IMG/VR virus record: IMGVR_UViG_3300008987_000001
Length of the DNA stretch: 64,000 bases
DNA from: a virus
Taxonomy: Duplodnaviria > Heunggongvirae > Uroviricota > Caudoviricetes
Direction: 5' to 3' (one strand)
Shown here: in pieces, positions 1 to 31,080 of the stretch
Position numbering within the stretch: the stretch's first letter is position 1
Layout of the letters: each line of letters starts with the position of its first letter
The notes under the pieces: generated by a model
The model's input: only the letters and a program-made list of their open reading frames with translations
Told to the model about the DNA's origin: nothing
The model's database searches: none
Made by a program: the position numbers and the translations under genes

Positions 1-2059
1 AACCATTACAGAAGTCGGAGAAGGATACGTTCAGACAAGCGAAGGCTCCAAAGTTCCGACAACCGGGTGGAAGTATTTAATTAATCAGACGGTGTTTGAT
101 GGGAACGCCGGGGCTGATGTGAGTTGTGATATAACGAGCATCGGGGGGCGGTTATTTCTGAATGGAATCACATACACGAATTCAACAACGTACGGAGTAA
201 GTACGGTTGACACACTCTGTAATATTAATTATTGTATCTTTCATACCACAAAGGCAATTACATCAAATCATGGTGCAAATTTAGTTTTAGGTAATTCGGC
301 AATTGTTTTGGGAAAATCTCAGGTAATCTCAATAAATTACGATTCTGGGTGCGTATGCGCAAATACATTAATATCTGGAGATTCTGCGACGTATTTATTG
401 ATGATAAATACGGGGAGTGAACTTAATATATATTATTGTGGTCTTTTTGGTGGTACATATGCCATTACGGATTATACACCAGAAACACTGGCGGTTATAC
501 GGTCTTGTTACATCGATTCAACATGTACAACTGGCGCTTATGGTTACAACATAACTCTCACATCATGCACCAACAATGCTGCAACACCCGTGTATAATTT
601 GACAAGTGGGGGAAGTATTGAGGAATGGGATGGTCAGGCATTACCCAGTATTGATGATGCAACAGGCGGGCAAGTGCTGGCGTTAAAGTCTGACAAATCG
701 GCACTGGAGTTTAACTCAGTTGTAACTATTGGTGATATAGGTAATATTACAATTGTTGGGCCAGAGAGCGGTGGAACTTCAAAGTCGGAGTTTGAAGGTG
801 CTCCTGACAATTCTGTTGCAGGATTTTCGTCTGTTTTGTTACGAGGCAGAGCCCTTGCAACCGAAACCCCGGCATTTATATCGTTCTATAACAGAACCGT
901 GGCAGGAGCCAGTACAAAAATTGCAGGCGTTACTGCTGTTGCCGATGAAAATAGTTATGTAAAGGGTCACCTTTCATTTAGAACCACCGCATCATCAGAG
1001 GCTGAACGTGCAACCATTTCAGAATTGGGAATTAATCTGCTGGCCGGTAGTTATCTATTAAACGGTGTGGCACTTGCAGCATCAGATGTTGGGGCGGCAT
1101 CTTCGACAACTGCAACCACGAGTATTTATGTTGATAAAGCAGCGACTGGCGCTGGGACTGGTGTTGATTGGACAAACGCATTTACAACCATTCAGGCGGC
1201 AATTACCTCTCTTCCGGCGATTATAAACCACGCGGTTACTATCTATGTTAGGAAAGGGTCTAGTGCCTATTCAGAGTCTCCGGTCCTTCAGCGTGTGGTT
1301 GCAGGAGGATCAATTACAATTCGGGGGGAGTTTGTGTGGTATGGGACAAATGCAAGCTCTAAAACCGGTAAAATCGATTTGAATGCTGCTGATCCGGGGT
1401 ATGCAGACAAGGCAAGTATTGCATCAGGAGACAAGGTTTTAATTGTTGTATACTCCGGGACGGCTGAAGCCTCTGCACCGGCTGCATCATATGAAGATAC
1501 GGTTGCTTCAGTGTCAGGAGACGAAATCACCCTGACAACCAATACCGGAGTAGCATTTACCACTGCGGCTACGTATGTGATTGCAAAAACCGCAATTGCA
1601 GGTGACATATCTGTAAATAACACCAATGGAGTTACGATCGAAGGCCTCGATATTTCCGGTGCAATTGGAATTTCCCTGTCTAATGCCAGGAATTGTGTAA
1701 TAAATGGGAATTTTATCACCGTTACGTCAAAAGGAATTTATGCTGCTGATATGGTTGCAGCAACAGCAACCCGGAATAACATAACATCAACTACTAATAA
1801 TGCAATGGGTCTCCAAATCATCCGGATGTCTAATGTCTCAACTAACTTAAACAGGATATCGTTGACTGGCACTGGAACCAGAGGGATTTATGCGCAGTTT
1901 CTTGCATACGCGACGTTCTGGTATAATCACATCGACGACGCAGTGACTGGCGTTCAGGTCGCCACAAATGCAGTCATCAATGAGGCCAGTAAAAACCTGA
2001 ATGACGCGACCACTCCGAAATCTCCTGCATCCAGCAGCGATGGGGCATATATTTCATGA
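1..2059 (+). CDS. Receptor-binding / tail-fibre-like protein with parallel beta-helix-type repeats; 5'-partial (reading frame open to window edge, the GTG at 92 is only the first in-frame start)
   Basis: Frame 2 has no stop between nt 2 and 2059. Gly/Ser/Thr/Asn-rich repeats (e.g. NITSTTNNAMGLQIIRMSNVSTNLNRISLTGTGTRGIYA) typical of right-handed beta-helix fibres. Shares a WDG.ALPS...ALEF.SV module with the fibre at 2513-4453. Confidence 0.5.
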   Translation, partial: TITEVGEGYVQTSEGSKVPTTGWKYLINQTVFDGNAGADVSCDITSIGGRLFLNGITYTNSTTYGVSTVDTLCNINYCIFHTTKAITSNHGANLVLGNSAIVLGKSQVISINYDSGCVCANTLISGDSATYLLMINTGSELNIYYCGLFGGTYAITDYTPETLAVIRSCYIDSTCTTGAYGYNITLTSCTNNAATPVYNLTSGGSIEEWDGQALPSIDDATGGQVLALKSDKSALEFNSVVTIGDIGNITIVGPESGGTSKSEFEGAPDNSVAGFSSVLLRGRALATETPAFISFYNRTVAGASTKIAGVTAVADENSYVKGHLSFRTTASSEAERATISELGINLLAGSYLLNGVALAASDVGAASSTTATTSIYVDKAATGAGTGVDWTNAFTTIQAAITSLPAIINHAVTIYVRKGSSAYSESPVLQRVVAGGSITIRGEFVWYGTNASSKTGKIDLNAADPGYADKASIASGDKVLIVVYSGTAEASAPAASYEDTVASVSGDEITLTTNTGVAFTTAATYVIAKTAIAGDISVNNTNGVTIEGLDISGAIGISLSNARNCVINGNFITVTSKGIYAADMVAATATRNNITSTTNNAMGLQIIRMSNVSTNLNRISLTGTGTRGIYAQFLAYATFWYNHIDDAVTGVQVATNAVINEASKNLNDATTPKSPASSSDGAYIS

Positions 2060-2068
2060 GGTGAAAAA

Positions 2069-2341
2069 ATGTTTATTATTTTTGATAAAACAACAAAAAT
2101 TATTTATTCGCGTGGTTCTGGGACTCCTGAAGAATCCGGGAACAAATTGTATTTGGACGGTAAACCAATCTGCAACAATTTGTCTGTGTGCGGATGGAAA
2201 TACATTGCAGATCAAAAGATTGAACAGGATAGTGAGGGGGATTGCATTTTCGACGCGGATTACTATGAGACTGTAACCCCTACTGACAGATTGGCAGATA
2301 TTGAAGCAGCACTGTTAGATCTTGCAGAGGCGATATTATGA
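2069..2341 (+). CDS. Small acidic protein, putative fibre chaperone/assembly factor (paralog of 7168-7497)
   Basis: GAGGTGA RBS 5 nt upstream of the ATG. C-terminus DRLADIEAALLDLAEAIL resembles the C-terminus ERLDAVELAILELV of ORF 7168-7497. Sits immediately after a fibre gene. Confidence 0.35.
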   Translation: MFIIFDKTTKIIYSRGSGTPEESGNKLYLDGKPICNNLSVCGWKYIADQKIEQDSEGDCIFDADYYETVTPTDRLADIEAALLDLAEAIL

Positions 2342-2469
2342 GCGAACATTGGAAAAACATCATATTTTCGCGGTATGATGCAGATGCAATTGATGCAGAA
2401 AAAGTTAGGTCATACGTGCCGAAACTGATTACGCAGGATGAGTGTGATTGGATTTTAGGGGCTGTGTGA
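2338..2469 (+). CDS. Unannotated 43-aa micro-ORF (MSEHWKNIIFSRYDADAIDAEKVRSYVPKLITQDECDWILGAV), paralog of 7497-7631
   Basis: ATGA start/stop overlap with the upstream gene. Shares the SRYDA...KITQDECD.I.G pattern with the second micro-ORF. Confidence 0.35.
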   Translation: MSEHWKNIIFSRYDADAIDAEKVRSYVPKLITQDECDWILGAV

Positions 2470-2476
2470 TCATGAC

Positions 2477-2484
2477 ATATATAA
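2477..2484 (+). promoter_or_regulatory. TATA-like box (ATATATAA) with a downstream GGTGA RBS before the 2513 fibre gene
   Basis: Member of the recurrent CTTATATA-type motif found upstream of many genes in this window. AGGTGA lies at 2501-2506, 7 nt before the ATG. Confidence 0.4.
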
Positions 2485-2512
2485 ATCACATTTTTAAACA
2501 AGGTGATACACC

Positions 2513-4453
2513 ATGACAACATATAGAGTGTGGAATGGAACATCGTGGGAATATATCGATAATCAAAATTATGATGCACGATATTTACTACGTAGTGAGT
2601 TGGGTGCAGCAGAAGGTACTTCTTCATTAGATTCATCTGGACACATACCTACTGAACAATTACCAAGTAGTATTACCGGGGCGGTGAGTTATCAGGGAAC
2701 CTTTGATCCAACAAGTGGATCCCCAACTCCTGCAGCCCAAGGATATTACTATGTAAGTGATGGAGTAGGCACAATTGATACTACATCCTTTGCAACTGGT
2801 GATTGGCTTGTATATCGTGATGATACTACATGGGATAAAATTGCCAATAGTAGTGCTAGTATTACATGGTCTAATATATCTGATAAACCTGCAGGTTATA
2901 CACCGGAATCACATGGTAATGAAGCACATGATGTAGTTTATGCCGTGACAAGTGATATCACATATGAGACGCTTAACACAAATGGAGATGTGGGGGTTAG
3001 TGCAGGACAACTCGCCATTGGTAATCATACCCATAGTGATTTACAACCAATTGATGGAGATCTCACAGCAATCGCTGCATTAAGTGGAAGTGCAGGATTA
3101 CTTCGCAAGACTGCATCTAACACATGGACACTTGATACTAACACATATATTACATCATTAACTAAAGCACCCGATTCAACCTTATGGGATGGTACTGCAT
3201 TACCATCATTTACCGACAATGAGTTGAAGTATATAAGATTGAATGCCGGTGGTGATGCTCTTGAATTTAGCAGTGTTTCCATTGCAATAAATGCCACACA
3301 ATGGGATGGAGTAGCACGTCCAGTATTAACTGATAATGCACTAAAATATCTACGTGTTAATACTGATGCAAGTGCCCTTGAATTTGCAACTGTAAGTGGG
3401 GGAGATGGAACTTGGGGTAGCATTACTGGAACCATATCAGATCAAACTGATTTATATAGTGAATTTGCAACAGTTGATGATAGCAGGTTTACTGATGCCA
3501 GAACACCAACTGCTCATAATCTAATTGATACAACCGGGCACTCTGTTAGTGGACTTACCATTGGGCATTTCCTGAAAGCGACTGGAGCAACAACCTATGC
3601 ATTTGGTGCTCATGGTTTAACTGCCAGTGATGTAGGTGCTCAACCAGTAGATGATGAATTAACGTCACTTGCCGGATTATCACTTACTGGGAATGGTGGA
3701 AAGGTTATATCTGTTAAATCTGATGTTTCTGGATTTGAATTAACAACTCCTGCAACTGGTGGAGATATCACATCTGATGGAAACTGGGTTGCTGCAGGTG
3801 ATCTCATTGTTGGAACTGGTGAAAATACTGCAGCGATTTTAACAAAAGGAACTGAAGGACAGGTTCTCAAAGTTGGATCATCAACTCTTGAATGGGGTGC
3901 AGAAACAACGTATTCTCTTCCAACTGCCGCATCAGATACTCTTGGTGGAGTAAAAATTGGAACAGGTATATCAATTGCTGCCGGAGTAATTACACCAGAT
4001 ATTAATGGACTCACATTACTTGATGAGGCTCCAGCAGATGGAGATTATTTTGCAATATATGATACATCCGGGACTGCACTCAAAAAGGTTGCTGCATCTA
4101 ATGTGGGTGGATCGTCTGGTGGGGGTATTACATGGAATGAAGTCACAGGCACTACACAGGCTGCTGCCGTTGATAATGGATATATCTGTAACAATGCAGC
4201 ATTGGTGACTGTAACGTTACCATCTACCTGTGCATTAGGAAAGACCATCAGAGTTGCTGGTAAGGGTGCTGGGGGATGGAAAATTGCCCAAAATGCAAGT
4301 CAGCAAATCCATTTCGGTGATCAGTCTACAACATCTGGAACTGGTGGATCTATATCGTCCGGGTACAAGTACGATGCGATAGAACTGATATGTATTACTG
4401 CTGACACGACATTCCTTGTCATATCCGCAGTTGGAACGATGGATGTGGTCTAA
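2513..4453 (+). CDS. Tail-fibre / receptor-binding protein (GNHTHS HxH motif, repeated WDG..LP..D..LKY...ALEF modules)
   Basis: 646 aa, Gly/Thr/Ser-rich. HxH motif as in long-tail-fibre tips. Internally repeated ~40-aa module shared with ORF 1-2059. Confidence 0.5.
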   Translation: MTTYRVWNGTSWEYIDNQNYDARYLLRSELGAAEGTSSLDSSGHIPTEQLPSSITGAVSYQGTFDPTSGSPTPAAQGYYYVSDGVGTIDTTSFATGDWLVYRDDTTWDKIANSSASITWSNISDKPAGYTPESHGNEAHDVVYAVTSDITYETLNTNGDVGVSAGQLAIGNHTHSDLQPIDGDLTAIAALSGSAGLLRKTASNTWTLDTNTYITSLTKAPDSTLWDGTALPSFTDNELKYIRLNAGGDALEFSSVSIAINATQWDGVARPVLTDNALKYLRVNTDASALEFATVSGGDGTWGSITGTISDQTDLYSEFATVDDSRFTDARTPTAHNLIDTTGHSVSGLTIGHFLKATGATTYAFGAHGLTASDVGAQPVDDELTSLAGLSLTGNGGKVISVKSDVSGFELTTPATGGDITSDGNWVAAGDLIVGTGENTAAILTKGTEGQVLKVGSSTLEWGAETTYSLPTAASDTLGGVKIGTGISIAAGVITPDINGLTLLDEAPADGDYFAIYDTSGTALKKVAASNVGGSSGGGITWNEVTGTTQAAAVDNGYICNNAALVTVTLPSTCALGKTIRVAGKGAGGWKIAQNASQQIHFGDQSTTSGTGGSISSGYKYDAIELICITADTTFLVISAVGTMDVV

Positions 4454-5413
4454 ATGGCCAAACAATCTGCTTTTTACGAACCGCCATCTGATTCCCAGAC
4501 GTATTACCGCTCAACGGGATACTGGTCAATTGGTATTGGTATTGATCGGGGTATTATCGCGGGTGGAACCACTGGATCCGTGAGCAATGTCATTGACTAC
4601 ATCACCATATCACTTGCAGGGAACGCTACTGACTTTGGTGATCTGACAGTTGCACGAAGTCAACTTGGCGGGGCAGCATCATCAACTAGGGGTATAATTT
4701 TTGGAGGAACAACTGGATCGGTAAGCGATGTAATTGACTATGTAACAATTGCTACAGTTGGTAACGCGACAGATTTCGGAGATTTGGATGCTGCACGGCG
4801 TGGTGTATCTGGGTGTTCAAATGAGACAAGAGGATTGCAGGTTGGAGGATATACCACTGAAGCAGTCAATGTAATTACCTATGTTACTATAGCAACAACG
4901 GGTAATGCAACCGATTTCGGAGATTTAAGTGCAGTAAAATATTTTACATCAAGTTTGGCATCATCTACAAGGGGGATTGCTGCGGGTGGATATGATGCAG
5001 TAGATGTTATTGAGTATGTGACTATTGCTACAACCGGAAACGTGACGAATTTTGGTGATCTATCTACTGGAAGAGATTTGTGTGCAGGGTGTAGTTCATC
5101 AGTTCGCGGATTGATTATTGGTGGATTGAATAGTGGAGACACGTATCTGGATAGCATTGAGTATGTAACAATTGCTACAACAGGCAATGCTGCGTCTTTT
5201 GGAAGTTTGAGTGCTACACGCGGGTATTCTGCAGCAACATCAAACGCATTACGTGGAATCATTGCAGGTGGATTGAATTCAAGTGCAGAATATCTGAATG
5301 TAATTGAGTATGTAACAATTGCTACAACAGGCAGTTCAACTGATTTTGGCGATTTGACAGTATCAAGAAGCATCTCTGCTGGATTATCAGATTGTCATGG
5401 TGGGCTCGTATGA
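4454..5413 (+). CDS. Repeat protein: six ~48-aa blade-like repeats (core GG..S.VIDY[IV]TIATTGNATDFGDL), possible Kelch-like beta-propeller; C-terminus SDCHGGLV
   Basis: ATG abuts the stop codon of the fibre gene. Six full repeats are visible in the translation. Tandem paralog follows. Confidence 0.55.
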   Translation: MAKQSAFYEPPSDSQTYYRSTGYWSIGIGIDRGIIAGGTTGSVSNVIDYITISLAGNATDFGDLTVARSQLGGAASSTRGIIFGGTTGSVSDVIDYVTIATVGNATDFGDLDAARRGVSGCSNETRGLQVGGYTTEAVNVITYVTIATTGNATDFGDLSAVKYFTSSLASSTRGIAAGGYDAVDVIEYVTIATTGNVTNFGDLSTGRDLCAGCSSSVRGLIIGGLNSGDTYLDSIEYVTIATTGNAASFGSLSATRGYSAATSNALRGIIAGGLNSSAEYLNVIEYVTIATTGSSTDFGDLTVSRSISAGLSDCHGGLV

Positions 5414-6330
5414 ATAAGCAATCCATAACGTATGAGGCAAATGCAGGGATACCATTGAAACGTAAGAACGGGCAATGGGGATTGACCGGGGGTATTGGCA
5501 GAGGCATCTTTGCAGGAGGATATGTATCTGCATATTCTAATGTCATTGATTACATTACGATTGCGACAACTGGCAACGCGACAGATTTCGGAGATTTGAC
5601 TGTCGCTAAGATGTTTTTAGGGTGTCCATCTTCATCAACACGGGGGTGTTTTGGTAGTGGCGATCCAAGCAATGTAATTGATTATATTACGATTGCGACA
5701 ACCGGTAATGCTACAGATTTTGGTGATTTAAGTGTATCACGATATGGACTTACTGCATGTTCCAACGAAACTCGTGGATGTTTCGCTGGTGGAAATGGGC
5801 CAAGTAACGTAATTGATTACATAACTATCGCAGTAAAAGGCAATGCTACAGATTTTGGAGATTTAACTCGATCAAACCTATATTTAGCAGGATGTGGATC
5901 GTCAACTCGTGGGGTGTTTGGTGGTGGGCATACAACAGTAAATGTCATTGATTATATTACGATTGCCACTACTGGGAATGCAGTGGATTTTGGAGATTTG
6001 ACAGTTGGTAGAGCAATAATGCAAGCGTGCTCATCATCTACCAGAGGTGTTTGGTTAGGTGGTACTAATGGATCATATCTTAACACGATCGATTACATTA
6101 CCATAGCATCTATTGGCAATGCGACCGATTTCGGAGACTTGCCCGCAACAACATTGAGTAATGATGGTGCAGCAACATCGAATGGGATTCGGGGAGTTGC
6201 ATATTTTCGCACACTTACTGGATATACTAGGTTACAATATGTAACTATAGCAATTACTGGAAACAGTTCTAATTTTGGAGAATTATCAGTAACACGATAT
6301 GGACTTGGTGCCTGCTCTGATTGTCATGGA
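4550..6330. repeat. About 12 degenerate tandem DNA repeats of ~144 bp underlying the two repeat-protein genes
   Basis: Reiterated nucleotide core gt/aattga(c/t)ta(c/t)at(a/t)ac(g/c)attgc(g/t)ac(a/t)ac(t/c)gg(c/t)aa(c/t)gc(g/t)aca/tgatttcggagatttga. Confidence 0.5.
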
Positions 6331-6342
6331 GGACTGGTCTAA
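5410..6342 (+). CDS. Second repeat protein (paralog of 4454-5413); probable ATG at 5410 overlapping the upstream stop (ATGA). The ORF track starts at a TTG at 5392.
   Basis: Same 48-aa repeat and the same C-terminal CSDCHGGLV. Confidence 0.55.
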   Translation: MNKQSITYEANAGIPLKRKNGQWGLTGGIGRGIFAGGYVSAYSNVIDYITIATTGNATDFGDLTVAKMFLGCPSSSTRGCFGSGDPSNVIDYITIATTGNATDFGDLSVSRYGLTACSNETRGCFAGGNGPSNVIDYITIAVKGNATDFGDLTRSNLYLAGCGSSTRGVFGGGHTTVNVIDYITIATTGNAVDFGDLTVGRAIMQACSSSTRGVWLGGTNGSYLNTIDYITIASIGNATDFGDLPATTLSNDGAATSNGIRGVAYFRTLTGYTRLQYVTIAITGNSSNFGELSVTRYGLGACSDCHGGLV

Positions 6343-6380
6343 ACATGACATTATATGTAGGCAATGGAGAAGTGTAAACA

Positions 6381-7199
6381 ATGAATAGTTTAGCTATTGT
6401 AGAAGAGACTGCGATGAAGTCATTGGCATCTCCCGAATATTCCGGGATGTTAGCCAAAATCGAGGAATCTGCACTGGAGATAAACCAAACTACCCAGATT
6501 TTTCAAAAGACTCAAAGTCAGTTCATGGATAACATGATGACAGTGTCTCACCCAACTCCATTTCGGAATTTACGGCAGATACTAGCTGAAATGAAAAAAT
6601 CACGGCAGGCAATGGGTGAGGCATACTTTAACATCGAAAAGAAGAAGATCAAGATTCGAAAACTCCAGAAACAACTCGAATCATATACGGATCCGCTTGA
6701 CCGGGAAGAGGTTGAACTCAAGATCCGTGAGGCTGAATGGCAGATTGAATGTATCATGGAAAATGTGGGTGGTGCAATCAGAAAACTGGCAAATTATACT
6801 GCCCAGTTTAATCTCATTAAGGGCCAGTTAACTGATTTATCCGAACAGACCTTCGAGGAGGAAGAGGAACGATACCACATTATGAAAGCCTTTGAACAGG
6901 GCATTTGTGCTGCCCGGAGTCATGGTGGATATATTGACGAAGGGAACCAGATTTATTTTACCCAGATTGGTATCAATGGAACGGTTGCACAGGTAGAGAT
7001 GACCAATTATCTGAACTGGGAAGCAACACAACTGCACAATCAACGTGAGATAACTCATGAGGACCAGATGATGTGGCTGAACGCCATGGCTGATAAGTTC
7101 AAAGGGTGTTCGAAAGCGTATGCAGAATACAAAGGGATGGATTTGAATACAGATTATGCACTATTAGGTGATCAGCGTGAGAAAACTACTCAAGTATAA
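6381..7199 (+). CDS. Hypothetical protein, coiled-coil-rich (fibre/baseplate-associated?)
   Basis: GGAG RBS 9 nt upstream. Long charged heptad-like stretches. Lies inside the fibre cassette. Confidence 0.35.
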   Translation: MNSLAIVEETAMKSLASPEYSGMLAKIEESALEINQTTQIFQKTQSQFMDNMMTVSHPTPFRNLRQILAEMKKSRQAMGEAYFNIEKKKIKIRKLQKQLESYTDPLDREEVELKIREAEWQIECIMENVGGAIRKLANYTAQFNLIKGQLTDLSEQTFEEEEERYHIMKAFEQGICAARSHGGYIDEGNQIYFTQIGINGTVAQVEMTNYLNWEATQLHNQREITHEDQMMWLNAMADKFKGCSKAYAEYKGMDLNTDYALLGDQREKTTQV

Positions 7200-7497
7200 A
7201 TTAATTAATGGACGGGTTCCGGATTACATTGAGGACGGTGGCTATTTTGCAGATGGAGACTGGCTCATCGGAGTTTCCAAACCTCTTGATGAGATTGAAG
7301 TGCCAACTGGAACCACATGGGTATCGCAGGCAGAACTCGAATCAATGATAACTGCGGCAAACGAAAATCTCGAAGAAGGCATGGAACCTCTAACCCGTGA
7401 GATATTTGAGGACGATAAGAGGATGTATCGGTATTACGGGCTTACAAAGGATGAACGGCTCGATGCGGTCGAACTTGCCATACTGGAGTTGGTCTGA
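7168..7497 (+). CDS. Small acidic protein, paralog of 2069-2341 (putative fibre chaperone)
   Basis: C-terminal similarity RL.A.ELA.L.L to ORF 2069-2341. Confidence 0.35.
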   Translation: MISVRKLLKYKLINGRVPDYIEDGGYFADGDWLIGVSKPLDEIEVPTGTTWVSQAELESMITAANENLEEGMEPLTREIFEDDKRMYRYYGLTKDERLDAVELAILELV

Positions 7498-8136: not shown

Positions 8137-8895
8137 TTAGTAGTTCCTCACTTTTGCAAAGAAGTACTTTGGCACTTTGAATATATTGTAGTTCCAAGTA
8201 TAGTCTGACCCTTCAATGTTAAATAGAACATACCCGTTATCTGGGCGCTTTTGGCTTTTGGTCATGATATAGCCATCCATGCCTTTCCAGCACGGTGTTG
8301 TCATAGCGATGTAGTTTGGCCCACCGGCATATTTGAATGTGTGACTATGTGATTTGATGTATATATCTGCATCGTCGCCATCGAGCCTCAACTGATCAAT
8401 TGAACCAATCATACTGCTGAAGGCCCCATCATTACGGGAACTGTATGGTCCATAATGCTGCACGTTCATCTTAATGTTATCAAACAGTATGTCACCAAAG
8501 TAATCGTACCATTCTCCACGAAGCATTGTACAAACAATTTCATCAGCACTTGGGTTATCATTGGTGTGATATGTTGAGCCCTGCGTGAATATATAACGCT
8601 TCGTATTGATCATTGAAAGTAACTGCTTCGCAATATCACATTGAACCATCATGTCAGTAACGAGGATATCCTTGCCCTTACTCTTACTATTGAGACCATC
8701 TACAATATCACCATTGCAAATTACGGCATCAACTTCACCTACACTCATTACCATGTTTTCCCATTGCTCATAAAGGAATTCCTGGACTTTGGATTGTGTG
8801 AGGTGTAAATCGCGATCTGCATTATAATAATTACGTGGCAGCATACCACTTGATCCCCCACAATGCAAATCACTAACAACTAGTACTTTCTTCAT
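8137..8895 (-). CDS. Calcineurin-like metallophosphoesterase (Mre11/SbcD- or lambda-PPase-like)
   Basis: VVSDLHCG ... NGDIVDG ... GSTYHTND motif series (D.H / GD..D / GNH-like). Confidence 0.55.
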   Translation of the reverse strand: MKKVLVVSDLHCGGSSGMLPRNYYNADRDLHLTQSKVQEFLYEQWENMVMSVGEVDAVICNGDIVDGLNSKSKGKDILVTDMMVQCDIAKQLLSMINTKRYIFTQGSTYHTNDNPSADEIVCTMLRGEWYDYFGDILFDNIKMNVQHYGPYSSRNDGAFSSMIGSIDQLRLDGDDADIYIKSHSHTFKYAGGPNYIAMTTPCWKGMDGYIMTKSQKRPDNGYVLFNIEGSDYTWNYNIFKVPKYFFAKVRNY

Positions 8896-19654: not shown

Positions 19655-22600
19655 TCAATATCGTCTGTATCCATTATTACACACCGTAAAATCTCTTGTA
19701 AATGCAAAGTAGCCTAAATTAGTTGACTTGCAAATCTTTAGGGTCATGTCCATAAGACCGCGAGGATCTGGTTTCTGCTCACCGAGGTAAATGTTGCAAA
19801 TGTTTCCACCGTCGAGTATCGGGAAGAATGCCTGCTCAATACGAATCTTTTCAGCGATTTGAATATCAGCATCTACCGGGACGTGCGTACCATTTGTATA
19901 GTAAATTGGCAAATCGCGTGATCCGGTCTCGGCATACTTTTTAATGGCAGCACGAACATCGCCTTTAACAAACTTATGAGCATCGCCATAGTTAAGTAGA
20001 TCAAGCACCGCGAACCTTTGTGCTGTCGTTTCTGCTGGAGTTCTTGAAAATGATAACTTAATATCTTGTTCGGTGGTCATTTTTTTGCAATATTTATTGA
20101 GTTCATTGCATATCTTCAATGTAAACATATGTGCTCCATTATCAGAATACAATGGTTTACCAAGCATAATCTCGCATACCTCATTCATACCAACGATTCC
20201 GATAGTGAATACGTAATCTGATAGGTCTAGGAATGGTGGAATTAATTTTCCAGTGATAGAATCTCGTTTTATATGTGTTGGAAATGGGAGCATGCCATTA
20301 TCTATACACTCGGTTATCCAACCGCGTTTAATTTTAAAAATCTCAATGGCTAATTGAATGTTTTGTTTGCACAATTCTATGAAAGTATCTATGTTACCAG
20401 TGGATTCATATGCATATCGTGGCATGTTGAGCGTTATTACCTGCGCAGAACCCATGGTAAAGTGCTTTCCATCTCTAAAGTATAGTTTGTTATCGAAATC
20501 TGGATCTCCTTCCTCGCCGCTTGAAAACGAAAATGCGCAATTCGAAGATACCATTCCTTGGGCAGTAATAAATAAATGATCTGTTACTTCTACTGGATCA
20601 TATACATCCCCATCATACGGAGATGTTTCTATCTTAACAATTGGTGATTCCCATTTACACTCTTTATTAATACACGCGAAGAAAGATTTAACTTCTTCTT
20701 GTTTATTAAGGGTTAATATATGTCTAGTTTTTCTGTTTGGTCGTTTATCTTCAACGATTGAATACTTAAAATCATATCCAAGGCTACCTGTCAATAACAA
20801 TACCCCTTCAGCTAATGGTTTTGAAATTGTATTCATTTCAATACGAAGAATTTTTGATTTTGTTCCATTCTTACGAAGGCATCCATCGCCACGATAATAT
20901 CCATTTATAAATGCCCATTTACATTTAATTGGGGCATTAAGAATGAATGTCGGAACTGTCATATCGCGACCTTTCATCGCAACACCAATTTCAATAAACC
21001 AATCATGAATCTTATTGCTGTGAATGAATACCGATGTTCCAGCACCCTTATTTACAGACTGTAATTTGGCATCATATCCAAACACATTTTTGATTATAGA
21101 AACGGTTTTATTTATTAAATCAACCTCATGTGATCCATAGCACCACATTAAATGTCTATTTGTTCCATTTGGACTGATCGTGCTACTTCCTTCTGCAGCA
21201 AATAAACCAAGTAAATAACAAAATTCAACATCATTTTGTTCTGATAAAAACTTTGGTATTTTACCATTCGTTGGTAATTCACAATTTATAAAGGCTACAT
21301 CGCCAATAGATAAATTCTTTAATTCTAATATTCCACGATTCTTTATCGGAATTTTATGATCAAATGTACCACATATTCTTCTTCCACCATCTATTTTAAT
21401 AGTATACACATATTCGTTTATATGGTGTATCATAACATGACTGAATCCATGATGTCCAGATGGTGTAACAACAACATCATCATGTTTGAGTTCTGATATT
21501 GGTATGATACGAACCATTCCATTGTCAACAATCTGAATTAACGTATCTGGTAACAACGAACACTGCATGCACGAAATGCCTTTTCCGGCCCCACGATACT
21601 GTGGAATCATGTTATCAAAATATGGGGTTCCAAATTTACTTGCTAATTGAAATGCTGAAAGATATAATTCCCGAATACTTGGGTAATCACCAGACACCCC
21701 ATGCTCATCCTCATATTCCATCTTTGCTATGTATTCGGGTTCGAACGCAATCTCTGGTTTTGGGAAGTAAAATGGTTTGCCTGCGTAATCACCTGCGAGC
21801 ATCACATCCATAAATGCCTTGAATAGCAAACGATTCTCGCGTTCGAACTCTCCATAAGTTTCTGGACCAACATTGCCCTTATAAATCGCAGGCTTGTCGT
21901 TCCACATTTCAGGTATTGAAGGCGATAACTGTACGGAACTGAAAATCTGCTGGCCGCCTCTCGAAGTAAGCATCTGCGTCATTTCAAAGATAAAACATTG
22001 CATATTCTGTTTAATTTCTTTATATGTACAATCTTTGAAATATGGTGACAAAAAGCACAGGAAATTATAGAATCCCTCGCCCCCGGCAAAGTTAACTTGC
22101 CCACTGCCTAAAGTCTTTGATGCGTGGAGTATTGCAACTTCTGGGCGCATTGCCGGTCCTGCAACTGATGTGTGCTCTCCTGTACCATCTCCTGTGAATC
22201 CATAATAAAATACATACCGTAGATCCCAATCAGCACAAAAGTATCTACTTGTGATGTATTCTAAATCATGAATGTGTAAATTACCATTAAGGTGTGCTTC
22301 AGATAAATGCTCTGGGAGCATTAAAAGTGCTTGTTCCTTTGCCAGTTGATCGGCTTTTCTTTTGTGTACGGTTTCTGGGGAACGTTGTAAATTGGCGTTA
22401 TCTCCCTTTCCACCACCAATATCAGTCATTCTCGCATCATACACTGGCATCCCAACACGAGTATATTTGCGCCGACATTCATTCATATCACGTTCTAAAA
22501 ACTTGGTATTAACAAACTCCCTAATAAGTGGGCCTGTTACTGGATCGATTTTTAGAACACTTAATGTATTATATACATCATCAACTATATCTTCAATTGC

Positions 22601-22696
22601 TTTTCCGGTGCACCCAGTTTCTTTACGCACAGAATCGATAACTTTATTTCTATCAAATGATTCAATAGATCCATCATCCTTCCTTACTCTTACCAA
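19655..22696 (-). CDS. Ribonucleotide reductase catalytic body with N-terminal ATP cone, interrupted by an intein; lacks its own glycyl-radical C-terminus (see 22923-23228)
   Basis: ATP-cone motif VRKDDGSIESFDRNKVIDSV. Extein is 672 aa after removing the 341-aa intein. A glutaredoxin and an NrdD-type GRD are encoded directly upstream on the same strand. Confidence 0.6.
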   Translation of the reverse strand: MVRVRKDDGSIESFDRNKVIDSVRKETGCTGKAIEDIVDDVYNTLSVLKIDPVTGPLIREFVNTKFLERDMNECRRKYTRVGMPVYDARMTDIGGGKGDNANLQRSPETVHKRKADQLAKEQALLMLPEHLSEAHLNGNLHIHDLEYITSRYFCADWDLRYVFYYGFTGDGTGEHTSVAGPAMRPEVAILHASKTLGSGQVNFAGGEGFYNFLCFLSPYFKDCTYKEIKQNMQCFIFEMTQMLTSRGGQQIFSSVQLSPSIPEMWNDKPAIYKGNVGPETYGEFERENRLLFKAFMDVMLAGDYAGKPFYFPKPEIAFEPEYIAKMEYEDEHGVSGDYPSIRELYLSAFQLASKFGTPYFDNMIPQYRGAGKGISCMQCSLLPDTLIQIVDNGMVRIIPISELKHDDVVVTPSGHHGFSHVMIHHINEYVYTIKIDGGRRICGTFDHKIPIKNRGILELKNLSIGDVAFINCELPTNGKIPKFLSEQNDVEFCYLLGLFAAEGSSTISPNGTNRHLMWCYGSHEVDLINKTVSIIKNVFGYDAKLQSVNKGAGTSVFIHSNKIHDWFIEIGVAMKGRDMTVPTFILNAPIKCKWAFINGYYRGDGCLRKNGTKSKILRIEMNTISKPLAEGVLLLTGSLGYDFKYSIVEDKRPNRKTRHILTLNKQEEVKSFFACINKECKWESPIVKIETSPYDGDVYDPVEVTDHLFITAQGMVSSNCAFSFSSGEEGDPDFDNKLYFRDGKHFTMGSAQVITLNMPRYAYESTGNIDTFIELCKQNIQLAIEIFKIKRGWITECIDNGMLPFPTHIKRDSITGKLIPPFLDLSDYVFTIGIVGMNEVCEIMLGKPLYSDNGAHMFTLKICNELNKYCKKMTTEQDIKLSFSRTPAETTAQRFAVLDLLNYGDAHKFVKGDVRAAIKKYAETGSRDLPIYYTNGTHVPVDADIQIAEKIRIEQAFFPILDGGNICNIYLGEQKPDPRGLMDMTLKICKSTNLGYFAFTRDFTVCNNGYRRY
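20540..21562 (-). mobile_element. Intein with LAGLIDADG homing-endonuclease domain inside the RNR gene (aa 379-719)
   Basis: N-terminal Cys (CSLLPDTLIQIVDNG block A). LAGLIDADG motifs FCYLLGLFAAEGS and KWAFINGYYRGDGC. C-terminal GMVSSN followed by +1 Cys. Confidence 0.6.
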
Positions 22697-26807: not shown

Positions 26808-27410
26808 ATGTATTTATGTGGTTTTTGTGGAAATGAAATAGATTTGCATCACAGAGATCAATTATGTTCATGTGGTGTCCCATTTAGACAAGGAATAATA
26901 TACAAACATGTGATAAATTATAACAATCTATCTATATACAATACATCATCAACTGATATTATACATCAAAAATTTAAAGATCTCCAACAATACACTTGCT
27001 CAGAATATTATGATGATGCAACAGATCATGAAGTTATGCATCAAGATTTATGTAACTTAACATTCGAAAATGAATCATTCGACATGGTAATTACACAAGA
27101 TATTATCGAACATGTAATTGATCCATTTAAAGCACTCAATGAAATAAATAGAGTATTGAGACCTAATGGATTTCATTTATGGACAATTCCAATTGACGAA
27201 GATATTGAAACAGCATCATGTACATATGAACTTTATCATGGAGATCCATTAAGGGAATGTGGTATAAAGGTATATACACTATTTGGATTTGATATAATTG
27301 ATATGATACCAAACACATCAATAATTGAAAAATATATTATATTTGAAAAAGTAGAAAATTTAAATTACAATTTATATATTTTAAAAACTATAAAAACTCC
27401 TTGTGAATGA
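26808..27410 (+). CDS. SAM-dependent methyltransferase (Methyltransf_11/23-like)
   Basis: DMVITQDIIEHVIDPFKALNEINRVLRPNGFHLWTIP. Confidence 0.45.
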   Translation: MYLCGFCGNEIDLHHRDQLCSCGVPFRQGIIYKHVINYNNLSIYNTSSTDIIHQKFKDLQQYTCSEYYDDATDHEVMHQDLCNLTFENESFDMVITQDIIEHVIDPFKALNEINRVLRPNGFHLWTIPIDEDIETASCTYELYHGDPLRECGIKVYTLFGFDIIDMIPNTSIIEKYIIFEKVENLNYNLYILKTIKTPCE

Positions 27411-28401
27411 TGTCCTGGCATACTCCATCCAATGCTCTATTTATTGCATCATTGCGACAAAACTGTGGGCAGTCATTGTTGGGTACAGTATTAAACACTT
27501 CATACATTTGCTCACTTTTTAGCACATCAGTAATACTTTGCTCATTTAGATTACCAATGTGATATGCTTTGTTTTGTCTATGGTGGATACATGCCCACAT
27601 TTGATTATCTGCAGTAATGACCGTGTTAAAGTACATGCCATGACACCGTGTATAGGGACGTTCAATCTCACCTACATGATCATACTTGTGGGTTGATGCA
27701 CGGATATTCAGTTTTGGGAATAAATCTTGTCCTTGCTTTATATATTCACTTACATCATTACATTCGCCAGTGAATGGTCGTAATTGAGCAAAATCAACAT
27801 GTAGACTATCAGCACGCTCAAAGAAATCCATGATGCCTGATAAAGTAGATTCACCAGTCAAGTATCCAAGACCAACAGATGTAATAGATTCGCTCACTGC
27901 ACGTAGTTGCATTAACTCATCAACATTATCAATTACATGCCAAAACTCTTCTTCCTCCATGCCATGGGTTAACTTATACATTGCAGGTGTTCCAGCATCT
28001 AATGATACTCTAAAGTATGTACAGCAATCAAGTATAGCACATCGAACATAATCATTGCACATAGCAAGTCCATTAGAGTTAAGTCCAATACTGATACCTG
28101 CATTCTTGAACATGTATAGTGCTTTGACAAAGTGAGGACTCATCATTGGCTCTCCCCCACCACTAATAACCACTGACTGAACATTCAAATTGCTCATTTG
28201 ATCAACAATTGAAGTGATTTGTTCAAGAGTTAACTCTGCGCCATTCTCCTTTACTCCCACACATTTTGGACATCGATTGTTACACTTGTTAGTTAAATCT
28301 AACTCGAATGATATGAGGGTTTCATGACCATGCACATAATTGTGGATTTTATCCTGATACTGTAGGATTTTCTCATTGGCATTGAAGTTGTTTAATTTCA
28401 T
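27388..28401 (-). CDS. Radical-SAM enzyme (probably sugar-modifying; not NrdG-like)
   Basis: CNNRCPKC = CxxxCxxC at residues 39-46. 337 aa, embedded in the glycan cluster. Confidence 0.55.
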   Translation of the reverse strand: MKLNNFNANEKILQYQDKIHNYVHGHETLISFELDLTNKCNNRCPKCVGVKENGAELTLEQITSIVDQMSNLNVQSVVISGGGEPMMSPHFVKALYMFKNAGISIGLNSNGLAMCNDYVRCAILDCCTYFRVSLDAGTPAMYKLTHGMEEEEFWHVIDNVDELMQLRAVSESITSVGLGYLTGESTLSGIMDFFERADSLHVDFAQLRPFTGECNDVSEYIKQGQDLFPKLNIRASTHKYDHVGEIERPYTRCHGMYFNTVITADNQMWACIHHRQNKAYHIGNLNEQSITDVLKSEQMYEVFNTVPNNDCPQFCRNDAINRALDGVCQDIIHKEFL

Positions 28402-28955: not shown

Positions 28956-30101
28956 CTATATAATTCTTCGTATCCAGTTAAGTCTTGTAACAATCTGTTT
29001 ATTTAATACTCGTTGATTAAAATTATTTAGAATATGCTCTTTACATTTATTTCCAAGCATTCTGGCGTATTGTTTATCATTCACCAATGATAGCATGTGC
29101 ATTGAAGCATGACCAATTATTGGATCTGCCCATAAAGATACTGGGTTATATAAACATTGTGATGTCATTGTTTTTATCATATTATAATCGACAAGCAATG
29201 CACATGAACTATCAGTAAATTCCATGGATCCTCCATAAGATGTGACAATAACAGGTTTCCCAAGATACATGGCTTCCATCATTCCAATACCCAGACCTTC
29301 AGATCGATGTAATGATACATAACAATCAGATGCATTTATAAGACCTAAAAATTCTGATTTATCTACAACACCTCGTATATACTTTATATTATTGTAACGC
29401 TTTATGTAATGTATAAATGGTGCTTCTTCAAATGCGAACATTTCACCAAACATTGATTTTATCACTAATTGCACATCTGCTCTATTCCCAAAAGCACTTA
29501 TGAACGAATCAACTACAGCATAAGGATTCTTTCTATCAATAGATCCATAATAATCAAAAGAATAAAAGAATGTAAATTTATTTGAATCCAGTCCATATTT
29601 TTTGTATATTGTGGGTGGTGAGCAAACATCAATTATATTTGTCTCTGGTGCATATGCAAGTTTATGTATTGGGATCCCACGGTGATCAAACTTTTTGAAT
29701 ACATCATAACAGAATTGTGAAAAGCACCATATCTCATCTACATAATTATATGCATCGGTCCATGGGAAATAATCTTCAAGTTCCCAGAACCATACTCCGA
29801 TTGTATACTCATCCTCAGAAATTTGATGGTGATTCACTATACTTATAGCAGATTCAGCCCCGCCAAGAATAACATTTATAGGATAATGATTTGGTTCAAT
29901 AAATGTTAATGTTGATTTAAATGGAGTTACGGTATGTGGAATATCATTATCAATGAGAGATTTATGAAGCACCCTTGCAATTTCCCCCATTCCATTATCA
30001 TGAAGAACTCCAGCGTATAAATCAACTCCGAATGAATTCCATTTATGTTTATTAAAAATAGAATTAGAAATTACAGAAATTGATTTATTTAAATGTAGCA
30101 T
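28956..30101 (-). CDS. Glycosyltransferase, GT-B fold (GT4-like)
   Basis: EGLGIGMMEAMYLGKPVIVTSYGGSMEF (E-x7-E motif region). Confidence 0.5.
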   Translation of the reverse strand: MLHLNKSISVISNSIFNKHKWNSFGVDLYAGVLHDNGMGEIARVLHKSLIDNDIPHTVTPFKSTLTFIEPNHYPINVILGGAESAISIVNHHQISEDEYTIGVWFWELEDYFPWTDAYNYVDEIWCFSQFCYDVFKKFDHRGIPIHKLAYAPETNIIDVCSPPTIYKKYGLDSNKFTFFYSFDYYGSIDRKNPYAVVDSFISAFGNRADVQLVIKSMFGEMFAFEEAPFIHYIKRYNNIKYIRGVVDKSEFLGLINASDCYVSLHRSEGLGIGMMEAMYLGKPVIVTSYGGSMEFTDSSCALLVDYNMIKTMTSQCLYNPVSLWADPIIGHASMHMLSLVNDKQYARMLGNKCKEHILNNFNQRVLNKQIVTRLNWIRRII

Positions 30102-31080
30102 TTATGAATCCACCCCACTTATTAATAAAATAACAACGTTCATTGTATTCTATGAGTTGCTTTTCAAGCGTTGTGTCATATCCACGGGTCTTTGATTCGT
30201 AATGATATAACTTGGCATATGGCGTATATAAAACCTTATAATTTGCCTGATTCACTTTCATGCACAGATCAATATCATTATATGCAATTGGTAAATTATC
30301 ATCCATTCCACCAAGATCCAAATATAATTCACGCTTTATTGCAACACATGCTCCAGTAACCGCTGGATATATCATTGGCTCATTTGTCCGAGGATAAATG
30401 TCACACTTATGAGAATTTACATGCATAAATCCACCAATCACTTCACTATATACAACCCCACAGTGCTGTATAGTATGGTCAGCAAATAACAATTTAGCAC
30501 CAGTCATTCCAATAGTTGGATCGTCTATCATTGGACCAACCAATTGTTCAATCCATGTAGGTTCAATAATTTCAGTATCATTATTCAGCATGATAATATA
30601 TTCACCAGAACAATGAGGTATCACGGCATTATGAATTGCTGCATAATTATACTCCAATGGATAATCAAATACCAGTATGTTATATGGGCAGTTATCAAGC
30701 CAATCAACGGTATATTCATCACTCTGATTATTCACCACTATAATTTCATAATTGTTATGGGTTGATGACGTTACTATAGATCCAATACACTTGTTTAGAT
30801 CTTTAAGATGATCTCTTGTTGGAATAACAATAGTGACTAGTGTATCATTTAGATCATATGATGGTACATTTTCAAATTTATACAACTCGCAATTCATAGG
30901 TATACTTCTAACTTTATATGCAATGTGATTCGAGATGTCAATCCATTCTTGTTTTTTAAATAATGGTCCAAGTAATCCTAATACAAATCCTCCAATTAAC
31001 ATTTTATTTTTCTGTGAAAATATATAATGTGTAAAGTACAATGACAATACTCCGTTAATATAATTCAACTTACTTATCAT
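30085..31080 (-). CDS. Glycosyltransferase family 2 (GT-A), N-terminal TM
   Basis: VTIVIPTRDHLKDLNKCIGSI ... IIMLNNDTEII (DxD). Confidence 0.5.
   Translation of the reverse strand: MISKLNYINGVLSLYFTHYIFSQKNKMLIGGFVLGLLGPLFKKQEWIDISNHIAYKVRSIPMNCELYKFENVPSYDLNDTLVTIVIPTRDHLKDLNKCIGSIVTSSTHNNYEIIVVNNQSDEYTVDWLDNCPYNILVFDYPLEYNYAAIHNAVIPHCSGEYIIMLNNDTEIIEPTWIEQLVGPMIDDPTIGMTGAKLLFADHTIQHCGVVYSEVIGGFMHVNSHKCDIYPRTNEPMIYPAVTGACVAIKRELYLDLGGMDDNLPIAYNDIDLCMKVNQANYKVLYTPYAKLYHYESKTRGYDTTLEKQLIEYNERCYFINKWGGFINATFK

Follow-up and report, generated by a model that had tools for sequence, protein, structure and literature searches.

A 64,000-nt stretch of viral DNA (Caudoviricetes; IMG/VR record IMGVR_UViG_3300008987_000001; hereafter the window) carries at positions 4454-6342 two adjacent genes, A and B, for paralogous six-repeat proteins of predicted Kelch-like β-propeller fold, followed by a gene for a helical protein that we call C2. 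In our assessment A and B are probably propeller units for receptor binding in a tail-fibre system, different from each other and interchangeable, and are served by C2. A preliminary description of the same DNA had suggested an adhesin or receptor-binding accessory, and this suggestion is supported because the genes stand at the end of a fibre operon, because homologous propellers are fused to the C-termini of tail fibres, because the blades vary on one face, and because the propellers have diverged to an extreme degree compared with their flanks. The virion location of A and B, the way in which they are attached, their ligand (probably a surface glycan or protein) and the role of C2 are those parts of the reading that we infer.

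Gene A (4454..5413, + strand) encodes 319 aa, made up of a 31-aa N-terminal segment, six blades and the closing motif LSDCHGGLV, while gene B (5410..6342, + strand) encodes 310 aa with a 30-aa N-terminal segment, six blades and the closing motif CSDCHGGLV; the ending CSDCHGGLV that had been ascribed to both proteins is thus present in B and replaced by LSDCHGGLV in A. The two proteins are 53% identical over their full length and each is matched six times by a blade hidden Markov model (HMM), the matches in A spanning residues 32-315, so that the initial view of two adjacent + strand paralogues with six repeats each is upheld. The repeats are 44-49 aa long and follow the pattern RG-h-h-x-GG ... 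NVIDY(I/V)TIATTGNATDFGDL. Using the RG dipeptides as anchors, blades A1-A6 occupy positions 4547-4687, 4688-4828, 4829-4969, 4970-5104, 5105-5251 and 5252-5410, and blades B1-B6 positions 5500-5640, 5641-5772, 5773-5907, 5908-6042, 6043-6189 and 6190-6339, all on the + strand. Directly 5' of A lies the gene of a 646-aa tail-fibre protein (2513..4453, + strand), whose TAA stop (4451-4453) abuts the ATG of A. For B the listed start is TTG 5392, and an alternative ATG at 5410 overlaps the stop codon of A as ATGA. This ATG is almost certainly the real start, because the resulting N-terminus (MNKQS.TYE) parallels that of A (MAKQS.FYE) and that of the second propeller in a related viral locus, L114 (MKQSSTYE). 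The tight ATG/stop coupling that had been noted at the outset is upheld.

AlphaFold2 (AF2), run on B with an alignment of 44 sequences, returned a six-bladed propeller with at least 24 strands, four per repeat (predicted local distance difference test score, pLDDT, 89.9; predicted template modelling score, pTM, 0.88). When the model was compared with the PDB using Foldseek, the top 50 matches were all Kelch propellers, including the designed protein SAKe6, KLHL12 and KEAP1 (E 3.7e-16 to 5e-14), with query-normalised template modelling (TM) scores of 0.74-0.77, target-normalised scores of 0.62-0.87 and sequence identities of 10-16%. Structural matches in BFVD were to uncultured Caudovirales proteins (39% identity, TM 0.86), to S-SKS1, to a 'Kelch-motif containing protein' of the Burkholderia phage BcepSaruman (TM 0.81), to 'virion structural proteins' of PhiPA3, Phabio and Noxifer, and to poxvirus Kelch proteins. 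The Kelch-type β-propeller first proposed from the repeat pattern is accordingly what structure prediction returns, and at the level of the modelled fold the family would count as a Kelch-repeat propeller, that is, closed and with about six four-stranded blades formed by repeats of 44-56 aa.

As far as sequence is concerned, the family does not present itself as a recognised Kelch family, since none of the Pfam models Kelch_1-6 matches A, B or any of 44 family members at E<=1. Nor does NCBIfam hold a model for the propellers, sequence and profile searches of the PDB with the family gave nothing significant, and the PHROGs matched (19111, 27227 and 26444) are all of 'unknown function'. One Pfam model, PF12573 (OxoDH_E1alpha_N), did match A, B and 13 of the 44 members, at ~17-18 bits against a cut-off of 25 and on the TGNATDFGDL motif; we regard these matches as spurious. 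The same model is a precomputed domain on a database protein (P0089) and could mislead automated annotation. PF26696 is likewise precomputed for two further proteins (P0018 and P0062), and hmmscan did not reproduce it.

To locate conservation and variation within the blade, a profile was built from 1,110 distinct blades. It starts with R-G-[LVI]-F-[GA]-G-G, followed by six positions of low conservation and insertions of up to 8; its middle reads N-[VTI]-I-[DQE]-Y-[VI]-T-I-A-[ST]-T-G-N-A-T-D-F-G-D-L-T; and it closes with six poorly conserved positions followed by [AG]-[AG]-C-S-[SN]-S-T. With strands assigned from the secondary structure of the model and the Kelch convention, the variable stretches are the B-C loop (6-14 residues after the GG doublet) and the D-A loop together with the start of strand A (6 residues after FGDL). 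Judging from the topology of an antiparallel four-strand meander, these two loops would share one face of the propeller. The A-B loop (SSST) and the C-D loop (A-S/T-T-G-N-A-T-D) are nearly invariant across more than 1,000 blades and would lie on the opposite face. N-glycosylation of the NAT in GNATDFG is a speculative possibility, its Thr being only 60% conserved.

The blades do not occur in arbitrary numbers. We assembled a set of 81 related loci (L001 and 80 IMG/VR loci) and ran the blade HMM on all of their open reading frames (ORFs). Among the 168 complete ORFs, 143 have 6 blades, 24 have 12 and one has 18, and the few other counts belong to ORFs cut at contig ends or containing one sub-threshold blade. 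The 12- and 18-blade proteins are concatenations of complete units, each of which ends in CS(D/N)xHGGL and is followed by a short Gly-rich linker and then by '(V)GIGRG'; the A/B junction in the window has the same unit boundaries, split over two genes. The building block is therefore a unit 'GIGRG ... CSDxHGGL' of ~290 aa, whose closing motif marks every unit end. Thirty-five loci have a single propeller gene, 13 have two and 31 have three, with up to 8-9 in L054 and L074.

Propellers in related loci are encoded inside structural modules, in the company of a Mu-gpT-like capsid protein, SU10-adaptor-domain proteins, pectate-lyase beta-helix proteins and a phrog_3287 'virion structural protein', and some are joined to fibres outright. 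In L096, a Desulfobacter vibrioformis contig, a protein of 1,144 aa carries a C-terminal six-blade propeller behind a lambda-J-like central tail fibre, which takes up the first ~470 residues (phrog_31, E 3.6e-66; PF13550 and PF09327; Pfam Phage-tail_3 and Phage_Tail_Tip). A second fusion, of 662 aa in L008, combines a T7-type fibre/spike N-terminal anchor (residues 1-140, E 7e-39) with a C-terminal propeller, and in L071 a tail-fibre segment is followed by Laminin_G_3, fn3 and then the propeller. Many members of ~400 aa consist of an N-terminal fn3 domain and a propeller. It is the C-terminal domain that binds the receptor in lambda J and in T7 gp17. A and B look like a fibre-type propeller domain that has been released as separate genes, since residues 1-30 of B can be aligned to the segment that immediately precedes the propeller of the L008 fibre. 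Homologues of A and B are thus found at the C-termini of the L096 and L008 fibres, and in the window itself A and B directly follow two fibre genes. In three-gene cassettes (L007, L011, L023-L025, L031, L037-L042 and others) the second propeller gene starts with an almost invariant N-terminus of ~25 residues, MPSYSGVW(T/N)L..QYQA.G.GNWP, which may be a conserved attachment peptide behind which the propeller diverges. The starts of A and B differ from this type and resemble each other (M.KQS..YE ... G.W).

The closest relatives of the window were found by way of C2 and show how unevenly the locus diverges. In L108 the amino-acid identity to the window is 92% for C2, 75% for a 109-aa ORF that follows it and 51% for the adjacent propeller; the corresponding figures are 89%, 90% and 49% in L113; in L110 they are 79% for C2 and 49-51% for the propeller, with no significant match to the 109-aa ORF; and in L114 they are 74% for C2, 55% for the 109-aa ORF, and 51% and 44% for its two propellers. 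The 109-aa ORF stands directly after C2 in L113, L108 and L114, L114 has the same layout as the window (PROP-PROP-C2-108-aa), and L113 also matches the minus-strand gene at 8137-8400. Across the four relatives, then, adjacent propellers share 42-51% identity with those of the window, against 74-92% for C2. Nucleotide homology of L108, L109 and L113 begins exactly at 6316, within the codons for SDCHGGL, and continues at 75-77% identity across C2, while 5' of this point only scattered blade-motif matches are seen. The codons of the unit-closing motif SDCHGGLV and the stop (6316..6342, + strand) are a recombination breakpoint common to the relatives. Over a wider sample of 56 loci (1,373 pairs) the C2-adjacent propellers have a median identity of 50-55% while C2 spans 35% to 99%.

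Exchange is clearest between L040 and L078, where the two flanks show nucleotide identities of 97.2% and 96.7% and enclose three propeller genes (3.2 kb) in L040 and a single one (1.0 kb) in L078, among which no similarity could be detected at the nucleotide level. One breakpoint is only a few nucleotides away from the first start codon, and the other precedes the final stop by ~15 nt. A further pair, L023 and L031, whose C2 proteins are 98.5% identical, differs in the third gene, which has 6 blades in one and 12 in the other. Our data show that copy number and sequence vary strongly, by whole six-blade units and never by single blades. The recombination-driven hotspot of host-range variation envisaged in the preliminary description survives as whole-unit swapping and change in gene number; it does not survive as a regular array with changing blade copy number, given that 168 of 168 complete ORFs have 6, 12 or 18 blades. 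Comparison of repeat copy number among related genomes divides in the same way, with variation in propeller genes (three versus one in L040 and L078) and none in blades beyond these three values.

The second constant element of the cassette is C2, a 272-aa protein encoded at 6381..7199 on the + strand. C2 lies immediately downstream of the propeller gene(s) in 62 of the 81 viral loci, and in a sample from genome collections it is adjacent in 17 of 25 loci, the order being reversed in 3. A reciprocal search with C2 alone found a propeller ORF adjoining it, directly upstream or within ~400 nt, in 10 of 11 viral loci; the contig of the eleventh ends 218 nt before C2. C2 is kept where the propeller is fused to a fibre (L096, L008) and occurs once per cassette, whatever the number of propellers; it is an almost obligate propeller neighbour. 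In the AF2 model (pLDDT 85.8) C2 is all-helical, with a long hairpin formed by helices 60-101 and 105-149 as well as a helical bundle. Foldseek gave no significant PDB match for this model, the best being generic helical hairpins (E ~0.1, TM ~0.3), and at the sequence or profile level nothing was matched in Pfam, NCBIfam or the PDB, with phrog_1409, of unknown function, as the only family match. C2 has many invariant polar residues. Going by its linkage to the propellers and by the example of fibre-chaperone gene pairs, C2 could be a dedicated assembly or attachment factor that recognises an invariant part of the propeller. In most IMG/VR cassettes (~39 loci) C2 is followed by a gene that resembles a GT-A glycosyltransferase (L031, 9735-10445; cluster c5, phrog_1574). 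This cluster has an invariant D-x-D, and its profile weakly matches the STIV A197 glycosyltransferase (2c0n, E 4.5e-4); the gene is absent after C2 in the window.

How the module would work can be outlined as follows. Within phage tail fibres it would act as an adhesin, a receptor-binding unit that can be exchanged for another, its invariant face providing the fold and probably a docking surface, and its variable face, saturated with substitutions, being the likely ligand-binding surface. Specificity would be changed by replacing whole propeller units or blocks of units, with breakpoints at the conserved unit ends. Several different units would be carried at once, either as tandem genes, as in the window, or as beads on a string, and C2, present once per cassette, would be their dedicated partner, most likely an assembly or attachment factor. 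A more far-reaching proposal, which we put forward as speculative and rather doubtful, is that the propeller cassette and C2 form a widespread, unrecognised combinatorial host-recognition system. C2 would then be a universal loader or anchor for the invariant face and the CSDxHGGL end, and a phage would display a mixed, exchangeable lectin-like set (1 to 9 genes, or 18 or more blades per chain) and so hedge across hosts, in the way that Streptomyces umbrella toxins use their lectin sets.

Several points weigh against the receptor-binding reading. No family member has been reported in a virion or as a binder, and the only cultured relative, S-SKS1, has its protein annotated as hypothetical. A and B are without a recognisable fibre anchor, having only the pre-blade segment of ~30 aa, which may be part of the domain. 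The 646-aa fibre has a C-terminal tip domain of its own that is found elsewhere without propellers, and there is no evidence that A or B docks there. C2 has no detectable similarity to known tail-fibre chaperones. The fold itself is a prediction, and the assignment of loops to faces rests on β-meander topology and the Kelch convention. Lastly, the flat 50% identity shows replacement or saturation and is not by itself proof of positive selection for host range. The C-terminal 135 aa of this 646-aa fibre occur at 59-65% identity in other viral contigs lacking propeller and C2, and we rejected this domain as a docking site for A and B, since none of the five other viral contigs that have it has a propeller or C2 nearby.

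The free-standing state of A and B, next to a fibre that already has a tip domain, also speaks for the alternative that we rank first, namely that the propellers are decorations of the virion, 'sticky' accessory lectins that provide general adhesion to mucus, particles or cell surfaces from the capsid, neck or fibre shafts and are not the primary receptor-binding tip. The many fn3-propeller members fit this idea, an architecture that is typical of accessory adhesion domains, as do the up to nine paralogues per locus, which is more than one tail tip needs. So does the gene order in L110 and L111, where the fibre-propeller-C2 block directly follows the portal gene. However, the fusions put the propeller where J-like and T7-type fibres have their specific receptor-binding domain, at the C-terminus, and wholesale replacement between near-identical phages fits host-specificity determinants better than generic adhesion; for these reasons we hold the decoration hypothesis to be unlikely. 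L110 and L111 themselves, relatives of 30-35 kb, have the gene order terminase, glycosyltransferase (opposite strand), portal, 1,488-aa fibre with DUF2793, collagen and Fibritin_C, propeller and C2, and tail-fibre modules are not usually found directly after the portal.

Six-bladed propellers include glycan-active enzymes, and the propellers might accordingly act enzymatically on host surface polymers, as a mutarotase, oxidase or depolymerase (cf. NanM, galactose oxidase, endosialidase). The pectate-lyase-type β-helix proteins in the neighbourhood of related loci, and the GT-A-like gene after C2, would be in keeping with such activity. Conservation in the family is, however, blade-symmetric: the same residues are kept in every blade, and the asymmetric positions, where an active site would be expected, are the most variable ones, which argues against a single catalytic centre. 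Together with the lack of any enzyme family match by sequence in Pfam, NCBIfam or PDB, and with best structural matches that are protein-binding Kelch domains, this makes an enzymatic role very improbable.

The same structural matches could be taken to mean that the propellers are non-structural intracellular effectors that capture host proteins in the manner of the poxvirus BTB-Kelch proteins, for the fold is closest to substrate-adaptor Kelch domains, poxvirus Kelch proteins are among the BFVD matches, and direct evidence placing the propellers in the virion is lacking. Such a role would not explain why the propellers are always encoded inside structural or tail modules and are fused to tail-fibre anchors, and a BTB or other effector partner domain is absent; we consider it highly improbable.

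The blades of A and B had additionally been described as a regular 144-bp tandem DNA repeat, a description which did not hold. Start-to-start spacing of the blades ranges from 132 to 147 nt, Tandem Repeats Finder reports no array even at a minimum score of 30, and the mean identity among the twelve blades is 51% at the amino-acid level and 55% at the nucleotide level (nucleotide maximum 65%). At positions where the amino acid is shared, a pair of blades has identical codons in 41.2% of cases, compared with 41.8% predicted from codon usage alone. Since synonymous codons are at the random level, the DNA periodicity is merely a by-product of protein conservation, and the repeats are ancient and held together by selection on the protein; recent amplification of blades was rejected, as synonymous sites are saturated. 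The exception is the pair A5 and A6, which share an exact match of 31 nt and have identical codons for 22 of 27 shared residues (5149-5231 versus 5296-5378). By a rough estimate a match of this kind would arise by chance about once in 100 comparisons, and it probably stems from recent gene conversion over a short stretch of these neighbouring blades. In both A and B it is blade 5 that has the longest loop and an AATSN linker, and because these features are common to the two proteins they point to an origin by duplication of a complete six-blade gene and not by independent blade amplification. With blastn and tblastn no part of 4454-6342 was seen to recur outside this region in the 64-kb window, and hypermutation of the type seen with diversity-generating retroelements was rejected given that the window contains no template-like second copy, a reverse transcriptase gene not having been specifically searched for. 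A contingency locus operating at the DNA level, in which a 144-bp repeat changes blade number through slippage or unequal recombination, is refuted for blade number and otherwise extremely improbable, for even though the A5/A6 match suggests occasional short conversion tracts, the absence of an array, the low nucleotide identity of the blades, the randomised synonymous sites and the 6, 12 or 18 blades of every complete ORF all stand against it.

The propeller family is very large, essentially viral and essentially uncultured. A word-indexed search gave at least 7,998 matches at E<=1e-3, and an exhaustive profile search of 1.84 billion representatives at 50% identity found 11,945 proteins at E<=1e-3, of which 8,960 were found at E<=1e-10 and 4,963 at E<=1e-30. 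Some members reach 3,090 aa and contain several propellers; these giant proteins include P0247 (2575 aa), P0337 (3090 aa), P0269 (2153 aa) and P0274 (1695 aa, with five matched stretches). We regard the family as essentially viral because IMG/VR holds at least 567 matching stretches, compared with only 25 loci in 185,579 species-representative genomes. Nearly all of the latter are contigs of metagenome-assembled genomes or single cells from unrelated phyla, with assignments that include Patescibacteria, Methanospirillum, Pirellulales, Pelagibacteraceae and Epulonipiscium, which is what would be expected of phage contigs binned with cells. In a tblastn search of 50,697 phage records, B and a consensus propeller matched only S-SKS1 (31-35% identity) and one marine single-virus genome, and neither A nor C2 had any match. 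For S-SKS1 (NC_020851.1) the consensus propeller gave 17 places, the first of which (~93-1226), where the record begins and not far from the 'tail fiber protein' SWZG_00006, is a truncated gene annotated as hypothetical. An assembly index held no record of an exact copy of A, and a search of the literature for the motif ATDFGDL returned nothing. To routine annotation the family is invisible, having no Pfam or NCBIfam model, PHROGs of 'unknown function' and essentially no cultured representative.

In the window the propellers and C2 are part of a single + strand operon (92-7497), after which the genes are on the minus strand. It opens with a 655-aa fibre or tailspike-like protein with a β-helix (92..2059, + strand; Pfam NosD/beta-helix, residues 473-626, E 5e-5), followed by a 90-aa ORF on the + strand and the 646-aa tail fibre, whose N-terminus has weak PHROG 'minor tail protein' matches. 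Its last member, after A, B and C2, is the 109-aa ORF (7168..7497, + strand), which is kept in the closest relatives and has no family match in Pfam or PHROG. Neither the 655-aa nor the 646-aa fibre protein has a homologue in the 81 related propeller loci. The two fibres share a motif, WDG.ALPS..D....L......ALEF..V (residues 179-210 of the 655-aa protein versus 225-255 of the 646-aa protein, 47% identity), and the upstream fibres also contain a second, weaker copy of the WDG..ALPS..ALEF motif. Gene A is in frame with the 646-aa fibre gene, with the TAA alone between them (4451-4456), and a read-through product would resemble the fibre-propeller fusions of other phages; we found no supporting evidence for read-through, and agreement of frame has a one-in-three chance. 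An antisense ORF of 164 aa (4879-5373, - strand) lies wholly inside gene A and was rejected as a gene. Antisense and off-frame ORFs of this sort recur across loci (clusters c1, c3, c6, c9 and, in part, c10) only through conservation of the sense strand, and are a trap for gene callers.

Elsewhere the window encodes an NrdD-like anaerobic ribonucleotide reductase (19655-22696), a radical-SAM protein (27388-28401), glycosyltransferases (28956-31080, on the strand opposite to the propeller operon), a DNA polymerase and a nicotinamide phosphoribosyltransferase (NAMPT; 60220-61599), and it belongs to a fairly large phage genome. The NrdD-type reductase, radical-SAM protein and NAMPT hint at an anaerobic or facultative host. 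G+C content is 42-43% in the structural operon (92-7199) and 36.8% across the whole window.

Should these propellers be the host-specificity modules of a large part of the aquatic and sediment phages, the blade signature together with C2 would give a simple marker for receptor-binding genes in viromes. Units that are so cleanly delimited (GIGRG to CSDxHGGL) and are swapped in nature suggest themselves as a ready-made scaffold with one conserved and one hypervariable face, which would suit host-range prediction and the engineering of binders.

Among known systems the most immediate comparison is with the Kelch domains of KEAP1, KLHL12 and SAKe6, which like the family have repeats of 44-49 aa and six four-stranded blades. 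The logic of the Kelch motif is also common to both, in that an Arg opens the repeat, hydrophobic residues precede a GG doublet, a Tyr follows in the next strand and an aromatic residue occupies the outer strand. In the family the GG doublet is present in 87-92% of blades and the Tyr in 89%, whereas the Kelch Trp position is taken by Phe (99%). The blades are far more alike than those of ordinary Kelch proteins (51% identity within A and B), with a near-invariant TIA(S/T)TGNATDFGDL core, there is no BTB or BACK partner domain, and the family is essentially viral. If the model is correct, its variable B-C and D-A loops would correspond to the ligand-binding face of KEAP1-type Kelch domains.

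Kelch-like proteins are also known from jumbo phages. CBB_552 of phage CBB was detected in the virion by mass spectrometry, and the CBB Kelch-like proteins (CBB_550/552/554) form a small gene cluster (PMC5259590). The jumbo-phage proteins (CBB, BcepSaruman, PhiPA3, Phabio and Noxifer) resemble the family in being phage-encoded Kelch-type propellers and BFVD structural neighbours. They differ from it in that identity is only 11-21% and that InterPro Kelch signatures recognise them and not the family, and neither a C2 partner, six-blade cassettes nor cassette swapping has been described for them.

C2 finds its closest parallel in the fibre-chaperone pairs stf-tfa (lambda), gp37-gp38 (T4), S-U (Mu) and H-G (P2), in which a small dedicated partner gene likewise lies directly 3' of the receptor-binding part and the linkage survives fibre swapping. 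In contrast to these, C2 shows no detectable similarity to the Tfa, gp38 and gp57A families and would serve up to three or more different propellers with a single copy. Whereas the partners of such pairs usually co-vary, C2 is much better conserved than the propeller that would be its client.

Propellers as host-recognition domains have precedents of their own. The K1F endosialidase has a six-bladed propeller. In the receptor-binding proteins (RBPs) of the staphylococcal phages 80alpha and phi11 a propeller domain is the receptor-binding platform, and is suggested to bind the N-acetylglucosamine of wall teichoic acid (PMC7048315). As is proposed for the family, the propeller of phi11 Gp45 and of the 80alpha RBP sits on a trimeric fibre or RBP as the host-recognition domain, and its distal position matches that in the J-like and T7-type fusions. 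On the other hand, the phi11/80alpha (five-bladed) and K1F propellers are of another blade number or propeller class (not Kelch-like) and have no sequence relationship to the family; each is embedded in one RBP, whereas A and B are free-standing and duplicated in tandem. A looser analogy is offered by the umbrella toxin particles of Streptomyces, in which diversified propeller lectins on a common scaffold (UmbA) bind hypervariable surface glycoconjugates and several lectins are carried at once, as bet-hedging (PMC13274773). That system is a bacterial toxin and its lectins come from different families (5-, 6- and 7-bladed), so the resemblance may be one of analogy only. Swappable receptor-binding domains of tail fibres, propellers included, are well established, and the family extends this known principle and does not introduce a new one. 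What is new is a very large, unannotated and modular family of probable phage receptor-binding domains with an almost obligate partner.

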